A stretch of DNA of 32,000 nucleotides from assembly GCA_021498095.1 (NCBI GenBank), contig JAIZWK010000001.1:3930001-3962000 (forward strand), in the 5' to 3' direction. A model generated the notes under the pieces. The model had not been told where the DNA came from and ran no database searches. It saw only the letters and a list, made by a program, of their open reading frames with translations. The translations under genes and the position numbers were made by a program. The stretch comes from Candidatus Harpocratesius repetitus. Its GTDB lineage: Archaea > Asgardarchaeota > Lokiarchaeia > Sigyniarchaeales > Promethearchaeaceae. Within the stretch, counting starts at the first letter, position 1, and each line of letters opens with the position of its first letter. Below are positions 26,039 to 28,349 of the stretch, in pieces.

Positions 26039-26092
26039 TATTTTTACCTCGATTTATTATTTTCCGGTTTCTCCATCTATAGATTATTTGCC

Positions 26093-26248
26093 TTATCGCT
26101 CTCTACGCTTAGGTCTGAGATCACGAGAATGACATTTACGACATTTTTTAGCTCTAAATGGATTCTTAGCACCACACTTGCGGCAAATGTATACATATAG
26201 ATGATAATGGTCTGCGACTTTTCGCAAATAAGGATCAGTAACTGGCAT
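26093..26248 (-). CDS. rpl40e: 50S ribosomal protein L40e (eL40), not in the ORF track
   Basis: Manual translation: [51 protein letters not shown] (51 aa), with the eL40 C4 zinc finger [16 protein letters not shown]. Confidence 0.95.
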
Positions 26249-26436
26249 TTTCGATTCGCTATCCTTTTTTCAATTAAACAATAAGAAATTGAAAGTTTCA
26301 TTGATTAAAATTTTTTTGATTCGAAGGATTTCCATTATTCAGCAGCTTTTAAGGTGATCAATTTGAAGATGTATTTGTGGCAAAGATGAAAGATTTGATT
26401 CTTAAGCTAAAAGTAATGAAAAAATAAAGAGAATTA

Positions 26437-27615
26437 TTATTCAGCAATAGGCTTCTGAGACTCTTTTTCTTTTTCAATAGATGTTCCTGGAGGATTTTCT
26501 GAAGATTTCTCTTCTAATGGAGAATTTTTTTCAGATAAAGAATGATCTTCCAATGTAGGTTGATCTTTTAATCCAGTTTTTTCTTTTAATGTAGTTTTTT
26601 CTTTCAAGCGTTTTTTTTCTTCTAATTCATGTTGAGGAAATGGAGGTAAATCCAATTTTTTTTGTCGAAATTCAATGGAAGCAGTTCTCTTTGATAATAT
26701 AGTAACTTTTTCTTGTAATTGATTAATTTTCTCAGTCAATTTTACCAATGAAGGCACTAATAACTCAAGGTTATCCGTAAATCGTTCAATTCGTCGATCA
26801 AATTCGGTTATTTTCTCATCCAATCGATGTAATCGTGTACGAGTTTCCAAATTATTCGTATCTAATTTTTCTTCAATTGAATTCAATCGAGTTATTGTGT
26901 TTTTTGCCAAATTCACTGTTTGCTCAGAATCAAATGTTGTAGGTAAAGATTGTAATTTTTGCTCAATCTGATCTAATCTACCATCAATGGTGCTTAAAGT
27001 AGAAATGTCAAGAGTATCAATTCGATCATAAATTCCCTGTAAATCACCTTTTACTACAACATTATTTAATTTTTCTTGAAGTTGAAGAATATTATCATTG
27101 GATTTTGATTTTTCGGACAAATTGGTAATACTTCGCTCTATATCGATAAGTTTATTTTCCACATTCATTGAATTTAATTTGTAATCTATATTTTCAAAAT
27201 TCTTCTTAATATCAACGCCCGTTAGTATGTTTTCAATACTATCGACCTTCTGGCGTAAATAAGGATCAGAATACTTTTCAGATAATCTAGAAAGGTTTTG
27301 TCCCTTTAGATCAGATGGTGATGAAGCAGCAGGAACAACAGGAGCAACAGGAGCGACTGAAGGGTTTTGGATAATTTGGTGATATTTTGTACTTAAATCT
27401 TCACTTGGTGCTCTTCCATAAGGGTTAGCTGCTACAGTTGGAGAAAAAGAAGCAGTTTTTGGGGTAATTGGTATTTGCTGATTAACTGCAGATCTAGGTA
27501 GTGGGGTTCCTTTCTCGAATTTAACTGGTTTTCCACAATAAGTGCAAAACTTCTGGCCAGGTTTTAAAGGTTTGCCACAACCCCAACAAAATTTCGGTGT
27601 TTTTTGTGCAGGCAT
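26437..27615 (-). CDS. Hypothetical protein: N-terminal double zinc ribbon, Pro/Ala-rich linker, long coiled coil, repetitive charged tail
   Basis: CWGC-x10-CTYC; heptad-like segments (RLDQIEQKL, RLNSIEEKL, KINQLQEKV); no TM helix seen. Confidence 0.78.
   Translation of the reverse strand: MPAQKTPKFCWGCGKPLKPGQKFCTYCGKPVKFEKGTPLPRSAVNQQIPITPKTASFSPTVAANPYGRAPSEDLSTKYHQIIQNPSVAPVAPVVPAASSPSDLKGQNLSRLSEKYSDPYLRQKVDSIENILTGVDIKKNFENIDYKLNSMNVENKLIDIERSITNLSEKSKSNDNILQLQEKLNNVVVKGDLQGIYDRIDTLDISTLSTIDGRLDQIEQKLQSLPTTFDSEQTVNLAKNTITRLNSIEEKLDTNNLETRTRLHRLDEKITEFDRRIERFTDNLELLVPSLVKLTEKINQLQEKVTILSKRTASIEFRQKKLDLPPFPQHELEEKKRLKEKTTLKEKTGLKDQPTLEDHSLSEKNSPLEEKSSENPPGTSIEKEKESQKPIAE
26500..26625 (-). 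repeat. Degenerate 18-bp (6-aa) tandem repeat in the coding tail
   Basis: Units TTAGAAGAAAAAAAACGC, TTGAAAGAAAAAACTACA, TTAAAAGAAAAAACTGGA, TTAAAAGATCAACCTACA, then shorter or longer degenerate units (LEEKKR/LKEKTT/LKEKTG/LKDQPT/LEDHS/LSEKNSP/LEEKSS). Confidence 0.75.
27331..27357 (-). repeat. 9-bp x3 imperfect tandem repeat encoding VAPVAPVVP
   Basis: Plus strand AGGAACAAC AGGAGCAAC AGGAGCGAC. Confidence 0.7.
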
Positions 27616-27800
27616 GATGCATCTCCAAGGTTGGTTATTATAATTGTGATTTAGTTAGAATTATATTAATTATAGGAACAATAGAATGAAAAAGTTTAAG
27701 ATGCCAATAATTGGCACATATATTACTTAATTTAATATTTGCTGTACATAACCAAACGAAGTTCAAAAATCTTTTTCAGCTTTTAAATGCATATAAATGC

Positions 27801-28349
27801 TTATTGAAAGGAAGACTTCTTGTTTAAAACGTGTAATTCAACTAATTTATTGTTCAAATCAGTAAAAAGTTTCTCTAAATTTACGCCGGTTTTTGCCGAT
27901 GTCTCATAATAGCGAGCGTTCAACTGCTCAGCTAATGCTAATCCTTCTGATCTCGACACAACTCGTTCATCAGTTAAGTCGAGTTTATTTCCTACTAATA
28001 CACGTGGCACGTTAGGAACATATTGATCAGCTTCTTTTACCCAATTTTCAATATCAATAAAACTTTCCCGATCTGTAATATCAAACACGTATATTGTAGC
28101 AAAACTACCTTGATAAAATCCAGGACGGACAAATGCAAAGCTAGATTGACCGGCTAAGTCCCATATTTGTAGTCGACATACGGTGTTTTCATCATATCTT
28201 AACATTTTGATAGCAAAATTACTACCTATGGTCATTAAATAGTTAGCTTTGAACTTGTTTTCTGTATATTGAAGGACCATGGAGGTTTTACCGACTCCAC
28301 CATTTCCAAGTACACTTACTTTAAAAATGTATTCACGGACGTCGCGCAT
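27801..28349 (-). CDS. Rab-like small GTPase (Ras superfamily)
   Basis: G1 GNGGVGKTS, G2 YLMTIG, RLQIWDLAGQ, FYQGS, VFDIT, G4 NKLD, G5 ETSAK; no C-terminal Cys. Confidence 0.95.
   Translation of the reverse strand: MRDVREYIFKVSVLGNGGVGKTSMVLQYTENKFKANYLMTIGSNFAIKMLRYDENTVCRLQIWDLAGQSSFAFVRPGFYQGSFATIYVFDITDRESFIDIENWVKEADQYVPNVPRVLVGNKLDLTDERVVSRSEGLALAEQLNARYYETSAKTGVNLEKLFTDLNNKLVELHVLNKKSSFQ

Follow-up and report, generated by a model that had tools for sequence, protein, structure and literature searches.

A Lokiarchaeial zinc-ribbon protein with a probably trimeric coiled-coil rod, encoded beside a Rab-like GTPase: a candidate soluble adaptor or scaffold

Rab effectors of the EEA1, rabenosyn-5, rabphilin-3A and golgin type are dimers. 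Asgard archaea encode dozens of Rab-like GTPases, and to our knowledge no effector has been described for them. Coiled coils of another kind, the alpha/beta coiled coils, form the stalks of Tcar0761 and other DUF3782 proteins, the necks of the DUF1640 proteins MCUR1 and CCDC90B and the stalks of the trimeric autotransporter adhesins; their beta-layers, triangular layers built from three residues in beta conformation within a parallel trimer, have the consensus [aliphatic]-A-T-K-[polar]-[DE] or a KADKAD-type motif, and every structure of this kind is a trimer (PMC4786415). A further motif, R-h-x-x-h-E, was defined, with caveats, on short coiled coils, where it acts in the trigger sequence, and it also occurs in some dimers (PMC3653964). 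The present analysis concerns a 392-residue zinc-ribbon/coiled-coil (ZnR-CC) protein encoded next to a Rab-like GTPase gene in the window, a 32,000-nucleotide stretch (positions 3930001-3962000) of the closed 4.36-Mb Lokiarchaeial genome of Candidatus Harpocratesius repetitus. An earlier note on this DNA had proposed the two genes as a GTPase-effector or filament/tether pair. From sequence and structural models the ZnR-CC protein is read here, with modest confidence, as a soluble multivalent adaptor or scaffold composed of a zinc-ribbon head, a tether, a probably trimeric rod and an end peptide.

The protein belongs to a very small family, restricted among the genomes searched to one Lokiarchaeial family that includes Harpocratesius-like archaea, Lokiarchaeum, Promethearchaeum and a few genera of metagenome-assembled genomes. 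A word-indexed search of 5.8 billion proteins returned 34 relatives at E <= 0.001, and all of those with a named source were from Promethearchaeota/Lokiarchaeia. The nearest named relative was from 'Candidatus Harpocratesius sp.' (90% identity), and the named hosts include Lokiarchaeum ossiferum Loki-B35 and Promethearchaeum syntrophicum MK-D1. When 1.84 billion representatives were searched exhaustively with the family profile, about 15 clusters matched beyond the zinc ribbon, the remaining matches being multi-ribbon proteins at profile positions 5-40. In the 151 genomes of the class that were searched, only family f1 had full-length members, in genera g1, g5 and g6, and a divergent member was recognized in genus g7 (hhalign probability 99.2%, from the ribbon through NVENK). 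The most distant relatives retain the ribbon, an EYK-N--NVENK block of the rod and a phi-x-P-F-P peptide. Members carry the NCBI name 'zinc-ribbon domain-containing protein', and no paper on the family surfaced in literature searches, none of which was aimed directly at it. Foldseek found nothing in the PDB at E <= 0.001, the ribbon picking RanBP2/NZF-type fingers at E > 0.7 that were not considered meaningful; a wide search with VIA-align gave only tied long-helix matches (Z about 7), and the best ESM Atlas score, 0.84, was below the meaningful level.

The rod was examined with an alignment of 30 relatives, which is the sample for the counts of members given here. AlphaFold2 (AF2), supplied with this family alignment, predicted short helices at residues 118-133, 136-149, 152-171, 174-186, 189-201 and 204-223, with breaks at 134-135, 150-151, 172-173, 187-188, 202-203 and 224-227, followed by one long helix from 228 to 318 with a pLDDT of about 85-94. 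Periodicity was measured on the family-averaged hydrophobicity. Residues 228-318 gave a period of 3.52, that of canonical heptads, with an 11-residue step at 251-261 (the polar hendecad NLETRTRL) that carries a nearly invariant N255. Residues 118-186 gave a period of 3.28, and the conserved hydrophobic positions over 124-166 are spaced 3-4-3-2-4-3-4-3-2-4, a heptad plus a nonad, in keeping with the insertions of 2 or 6 residues (nonads or hexads) into the heptad frame that mark alpha/beta coiled coils. The roughly 200 residues of heptads seen in the earlier note are therefore regular over 228-318, but not over 118-227, where the period is about 3.28 and the helix is broken. In the block E-Y-K-x-N-x-h-N-V-E-N-K, residues Y145, K146 and N148 are invariant; the C-terminal part of the rod has the conserved blocks NLAKNT-x-RLN, ETRTRL and LVPSL-x-KLTEK (LVPSLVKLTEK in this copy), the last with an invariant P288.

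The segmented half of the rod also has a motif of the beta-layer type. The pattern [LMV]-[AV]-[TSV]-x-x-[DE]-[LIM] stands at one alignment column in 30/30 members, with L at 186 in 25, A at 187 in 24, T or S at 188 in 28 and D at 191 in 28. The family profile matched the trimeric alpha/beta coiled coil of Tcar0761 (PDB 5apz, with GCN4 adaptors; E 1.6e-6) and also 7o92 (E 2.4e-4), and both alignments pass through MATKDD/MATKHD opposite the family sequence L-A-T-x-E-D-L. Furthermore, in an independent AF2 model of the orthologue from MK-D1, which has about 36% identity, the break falls exactly at L158-A159-T160. The two models have breaks in common at the h-N-V of NVENK as well, and at another two homologous positions. 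Such breaks in the monomer models of two orthologues are consistent with a beta-layer. The alpha/beta coiled coils are the nearest known kind of structure, sharing with the family the fixed-position [aliphatic]-A-T-x-[polar]-[DE], the nonad interruptions and a periodicity below 3.5. The family differs from them in having one to few sites and not a tandem nonad array, in leaving the K of A-T-K unconserved, and in bearing a zinc ribbon and LDLPPFP instead of an endonuclease, membrane anchor or adhesin head; moreover, the trimer is here predicted from sequence and monomer models. The rod's variable part consists, in the Promethearchaeum clade, of the run KLEKLDRLDRLEKLDRLEKLDNLEKL (L022:9099-9173, residues 134-158 of the MK-D1 orthologue), in which nine consecutive Leu come at three-residue intervals and which ends in the LAT motif. 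A period of 3.0 corresponds to hexad spacing, which as a continuous array had not been found in nature according to the paper on alpha/beta coiled coils (PMC4786415).

The two exact copies of R-h-x-x-h-E reported in the earlier note, RLDQIE and RLNSIE, were present, conserved and in g-a-b-c-d-e register, and the near copies KVDSIE, KLIDIE, RIDTLD and RLHRLD were all found as well. The first exact copy leads into core positions 221 and 224 and is kept as [RK]-L-x-x-I-E in 27-29 of the 30 members; the second is followed by core position 251 and is kept as R-L-N-x-[MI]-[DE] in 29. A third, conservative motif begins at 261, and all three are kept in at least 27 members. Strict matches to the motif numbered 2 against 0.11 in rod shuffles and loose matches 7 against 0.49, values that overstate the significance because the shuffles ignore the heptad pattern. 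The motif is common to coronin-1, ccbeta and GCN4p-M3, which are short coiled coils, whereas here two exact copies and a conservative one sit in register in a 200-residue rod.

The best-conserved element of the 392-residue protein is the LDLPPFP peptide. It was absent from the earlier note, as were the EYK-N--NVENK block and the LAT-x-ED-type motif. The Promethearchaeum clade has LDLPPFP as the actual C-terminus (..LDLPPFPA), and the most distant relatives retain only phi-x-PFP, with DLDLPPFP, SFSPFP and TFAPFP among the forms seen. Its near-invariance makes it a concrete handle for partner finding. The possibility was considered that the peptide mimics the C-terminal LD-I-P-x-F of FtsZ; this was dropped, the only FtsZ detected in the genome ending ...ADEFFNISEIRSINEENLNLY, without the motif. 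A second LDLPPF protein, a 399-residue ORF (open reading frame) at genome positions 945926-947125 that is by eye presumably a radical-SAM-type enzyme, has the peptide inside a folded region and was judged a chance match. Otherwise LPPFP occurs in the genome only at the N-termini of four near-identical repeated ORFs (..ETTIPQSSLPPFPINLFLR.., G000:C1 at 2161263, 2373782, 2579088 and 2676653; two are about 450 residues long), which resemble copies of a single repeated element, possibly a mobile one.

At the other end of the protein is a basic zinc ribbon. The earlier note had described a double ribbon, but there is a single CxxC-x12-CxxC, and its cysteines (10, 13, 24 and 27) are the only four in the protein, where a double ribbon would have eight. 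Zn_Ribbon_1, with 29.5 bits against a cut-off of 25, was the sole Pfam family above threshold; DZR (PF12773) reached 22.0 bits against a cut-off of 27.3, with half of the model matched. Ten positions of the ribbon are invariant, including Cys10/13/24/27, W11, K22, F23, G28 and K29, and the net charge is +7 over 35 residues. The Pro/Ala-rich linker seen earlier was confirmed as a Pro/Ser/Ala segment of about 80 residues, disordered by AF2 (pLDDT <50 at 36-115), variable in length and sequence and holding a 9-bp (APV) repeat. No transmembrane segment was found in the protein, in agreement with the earlier note, the maximum 19-residue Kyte-Doolittle mean being 0.91. The repetitive charged tail that it described is also present, its DNA consisting of 3.5 copies of a young 18-bp repeat (LKEKTx), but the tail is not conserved: it is disordered by AF2 (325-392), variable or absent in relatives and absent in MK-D1.

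The adaptor or scaffold proposed here would be a soluble cytoplasmic protein in which the basic single ribbon, on a disordered tether of about 80 residues, precedes a helical rod of about 200 residues. Rods would assemble with one another in parallel, a trimer like those of the alpha/beta coiled coils being the likeliest state. The resulting stalk, about 25-30 nm long, would bear three zinc-ribbon heads on their tethers at one end and, at the opposite end, an LDLPPFP peptide from each of the three chains. The heads would bind one ligand, and LDLPPFP would recruit a peptide-binding partner. A parallel trimer is favoured, with somewhat more assurance than the adaptor role, because of the beta-layer motif, the 5apz match, the AF2 breaks and the conserved in-register R-h-x-x-h-E motifs.

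Several observations weigh against this reading. The a/d positions of the heptad half, counted over 262-314, have a composition like that of classical dimers (a = L 36%, V 21%, I 20%; d = L 50%). The beta-layer consensus is fitted by the family and only loosely by the present copy, in which the motif is degenerate (V186-V-V-K-G-D191) and the K is one that relatives do not conserve. The 5apz match has a compositional bias of 12.5 bits out of 30.6 and includes GCN4 adaptor sequence, and the breaks in the AF2 monomers could merely reflect G, N and D residues. In addition, the term adaptor is drawn from the layout, since no ligand was found for the ribbon or for LDLPPFP. The trimer suggested in the earlier note has thus gained the beta-layer-type motif, the nonads, the 5apz match and the register of the R-hxxhE motifs in its favour, but the composition of the heptad core is dimer-like. 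Whatever its relation to the GTPase, the protein, with its clearly delimited head, stalk and end peptide, is a candidate for an alpha/beta coiled coil that occurs naturally in Asgard archaea. The features of the locus are collected in Table 1.

Table 1. Features of the GTPase and ZnR-CC genes, with positions in the window
Feature	Residues	Position	Strand	Basis or remark
Rab-like small GTPase gene, 182 aa		27801..28349	-	ORF list, Pfam
GTPase/ZnR-CC spacer, 185 bp		27616..27800	-	
T5 run in spacer		27765-27769	coding strand	32-36 nt past GTPase stop
Palindrome GCCAATTATTGGC in spacer		27703-27715	-	
TATAATT in spacer		27659-27665	-	-50..-44 from ZnR-CC ATG, invariant
ATTATAAT in spacer		27637-27644	-	non-conserved
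GGAG in spacer				-14 from ZnR-CC ATG
ZnR-CC protein gene, 392 aa		26437..27615	-	ORF list
Basic 4-Cys zinc ribbon, FCWGCG-x12-KFCTYCGK	9-31	27523..27591	-	Pfam, alignment
Pro/Ser/Ala linker	36-117	27265..27510	-	AF2, alignment
Segmented N-terminal half of rod	118-227	26935..27264	-	AF2, periodicity
DYKLNSMNVENK	144-155	27151..27186	-	best-conserved rod block; nonad centre M150-N-V152
Beta-layer-type motif VVVKGDL	186-192	27040..27060	-	family consensus L-A-T-x-E-D-L
RLDQIE	213-218	26962..26979	-	R(g)-h(a)-x-x-h(d)-E(e)
Continuous heptad coiled coil	228-318	26662..26934	-	AF2, periodicity, alignment
RLNSIE	243-248	26872..26889	-	R-h-x-x-h-E
LDLPPFP	321-327	26635..26655	-	near-invariant short linear motif directly after rod
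Lys/Glu-rich tail	328-392	26440..26634	-	AF2, repeat analysis
T6 run after ZnR-CC stop		26419-26424	-	

The description of the gene pair in the earlier note was borne out, both for the ORFs and the 185-bp gap and for the presence of a Rab-like GTPase directly upstream on the same strand, which is the minus strand. The GTPase matched Pfam Ras at 4.9e-50 over 160/162 model positions, and its G1-G5 motifs are intact (GNGGVGKT, DLAGQ, NKLD, SAK), with the catalytic Gln in DLAGQ. All 60 of the best PDB matches listed were Rabs; a Thorarchaeota Rab, 7ezb, was at the top (4.9e-42), then Rab1, Rab21, Rab35 and Rab8. By its best PDB matches the GTPase appears nearer to the Rabs than to Ras, Rho, Arf or Ran. 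The protein ends ...LHVLNKKSSFQ, without a C-terminal Cys and hence without a prenylation signal, so that 'Rab-like' is the correct label, as it is for other Asgard GTPases.

The stop codons of both genes are trailed by T-runs, and the spacer has a footprint conserved in the genus: TGGCATCT..TTTTTCA, then the invariant TATAATT, with GGAG nearer to the ATG. From these signals the ZnR-CC gene seems to have a promoter to itself, its transcription stopping at the T-run. The TATA-like ATTATAAT named in the earlier note does occur in the gap, but it is not conserved within the genus. Scans with sigma-70 promoter and hairpin-terminator consensus sequences are uninformative for an archaeon. About 40 nt ahead of TATAATT, the conserved TGGCATCT block is overlapped by a perfect palindrome, GCCAATTATTGGC, whose half-site TGGCATC is kept in 3/3 species of the genus; the palindrome may serve as a transcription-factor operator.

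Among the alternatives, the one that survives best is that the ZnR-CC protein serves the neighbouring GTPase as its cognate effector or tether and binds the GTP form of that enzyme via the ribbon or the rod. This is unlikely. A GTPase orthologue adjoins the gene in every family-bearing contig with enough upstream flank (genera g1, g5, g6 and, inverted, g7), and it is a same-strand neighbour in 8/8 named or metagenomic contigs with flank. The metagenome scan added a single new contig with flank. Loss of adjacency had been named in the earlier note as refuting the pair; the adjacency was conserved in all flanked contigs, and it outlasts the g7 inversion and insertions in MK-D1 and L. ossiferum. 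The zinc ribbon is, moreover, far more conserved than a purely structural knuckle requires, and the switch and catalytic motifs of the GTPase are intact. The pair is found in both cultured Lokiarchaeia, MK-D1 and L. ossiferum, and is hence directly testable.

However, adjacency is weak evidence at this locus. A block of about 12 kb is collinear in g1, g5 and g6 (PGM-like, NTP-transferase, GTPase, ZnR-CC, L40e, L38e, PTH2, NikR-like and onward), so that the order of the two genes may simply be inherited. In MK-D1 an opposite-strand 217-residue ORF (L022:7920-8573, minus strand) stands between the GTPase and ZnR genes, in g7 the ZnR gene is inverted and convergent with the GTPase gene, and the ZnR-CC gene has its own promoter-like footprint. 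With the T-runs, these features indicate that the two genes are neighbours, not an operon. Furthermore, the GTPase orthogroup is older and wider than the ZnR-CC family. Orthologues with 54-62% identity (paralogues have at most 45%) occur in g2, g3, g4 and a second Lokiarchaeum species with no partner alongside, and orthologues with 46-53% identity occur in the sister families f2 and f3 in unrelated contexts; in none of these groups was a ZnR-CC partner nearby or detectable genome-wide. Gene neighbourhood was also a poor guide to partners in a survey of the MK-D1 small GTPases (PMC10933270). On present evidence the relation of the ZnR-CC protein to the GTPase is positional only, and if the link fails, a lineage-restricted scaffold protein remains.

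In L. ossiferum a hydrophobic 233-residue ORF (L021:10707-11408, minus strand), membrane-spanning by eye, stands between the NTP-transferase and GTPase genes. Neither this ORF nor the 217-residue ORF of MK-D1 had a Pfam match, and both are lineage-specific insertions in the collinear block. In genome G004, of genus g3, the GTPase orthologue (at the locus L055:1474-3407) is followed on the same strand by a 186-residue protein without a Pfam match and a lone Snf7/ESCRT-III paralogue (1.8e-13), and a HEAT-repeat protein is encoded upstream on the other strand.

The resemblance to eukaryotic Rab effectors and intermediate-filament proteins drawn in the earlier note held for the head-linker-rod layout but not for homology, none being found in Pfam, profile or structure searches. 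With EEA1, rabenosyn-5, rabphilin-3A and the golgins the protein has in common a zinc head and a long coiled coil, here beside a Rab-like GTPase, which is an analogy of layout. It differs from EEA1-type effectors in its 4-Cys prokaryote-type ribbon, with no FYVE or C2H2 match, in a rod that is probably trimeric, and in having no lipid-binding domain; no sequence or fold homology to them was found. A more elaborate proposal, that the protein is a dedicated trimeric effector or tether of the GTPase whose LDLPPFP couples signalling to the Vps4/ESCRT or actin system, is decidedly improbable; if true, it would give archaea their first recognized pair of a Rab and its effector.

The ESCRT part of that proposal can be considered by itself. 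On this reading the MIT domain of Vps4 would recognize LDLPPFP as a MIM2-type peptide, and the whole protein would be either a substrate of Vps4 or an adaptor for it; we regard this as very doubtful. L323-P-P-F-P327 fits the published MIM2 core, phi-P-x-phi-P (PMC8970359), the ESCRT-III proteins of this genome bear ALPSVP, TLPEVP and QLPDAP near their C-termini, and the genome has a single MIT/Vps4-type gene. The likeness to CdvA and ESCRT-III (MIM2, E3B) is that of a helical body followed by a short conserved Pro-containing phi-P-x-phi-P peptide at the C-terminal end. However, a five-residue pattern holds little information, and a similar C-terminal regular expression fits 33 ORFs in the genome. 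The pattern also suits the EVH1-ligand consensus and is thus unspecific. The rod shows no Snf7, PspA or CdvA homology (Pfam gave no Snf7 match in 30/30 members), the gene is not linked to ESCRT genes in this genome, and in g3 the Snf7 gene close to the GTPase orthologue is an isolated paralogue with housekeeping genes around it.

It is about equally doubtful that the protein is a cytoskeletal one, a dimeric or other coiled coil forming intermediate-filament-like or crescentin-like filaments with assembly controlled by head and tail. The head-rod-tail layout and the dimer-like a/d core of the heptad half would suit such a role, and lamin, keratin and vimentin are among the many long-helix structural matches. 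Those matches, however, are tied, generic long helices (Z about 7, E > 4), and the tail is unconserved and missing from MK-D1. The likeness to intermediate-filament proteins is one of layout only: their consensus motifs were not found, there was no match to Pfam Filament at E <= 1, and we know of no beta-layer or nonad features in intermediate-filament rods. That the protein is a nucleic-acid or ribosome-associated factor, its basic ribbon binding RNA or DNA in functional kinship with the downstream L40e, L38e and PTH2, is highly improbable, for although the ribbon has its net charge of +7, resembles eL37-type ribbons weakly in profile searches (E 1-5) and has those genes directly downstream in all collinear genomes, the eL37-type similarities are at chance level, the T6 run after the gene makes a separate transcript likely and the caveat of block synteny applies as it does for the GTPase.

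Two minor observations concern other proteins. A 74-residue ORF at 26077-26301 on the minus strand overlaps, in another frame, the 51-residue L40e gene at 26093-26248 on the same strand and is probably spurious. Proteins of about 290 residues from family f3 (about 115 genomes) were considered as members of the ZnR-CC family and rejected; they share only the ribbon and a charged linker and are without the rod motifs and LDLPPFP. Such a protein, with a zinc ribbon, an acidic/basic linker and charged helices, neighbours a gene for a translation-factor-type GTPase of about 450 residues (N-terminus ..IPIHIGLFGHIDSGKTA..) in 7/8 loci inspected (L029-L036, for example L029:1507-2370 beside L029:1-1345), L032 being the locus without such a gene. 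This pairing would be a second, independent case of a zinc-ribbon helical protein beside a GTPase.

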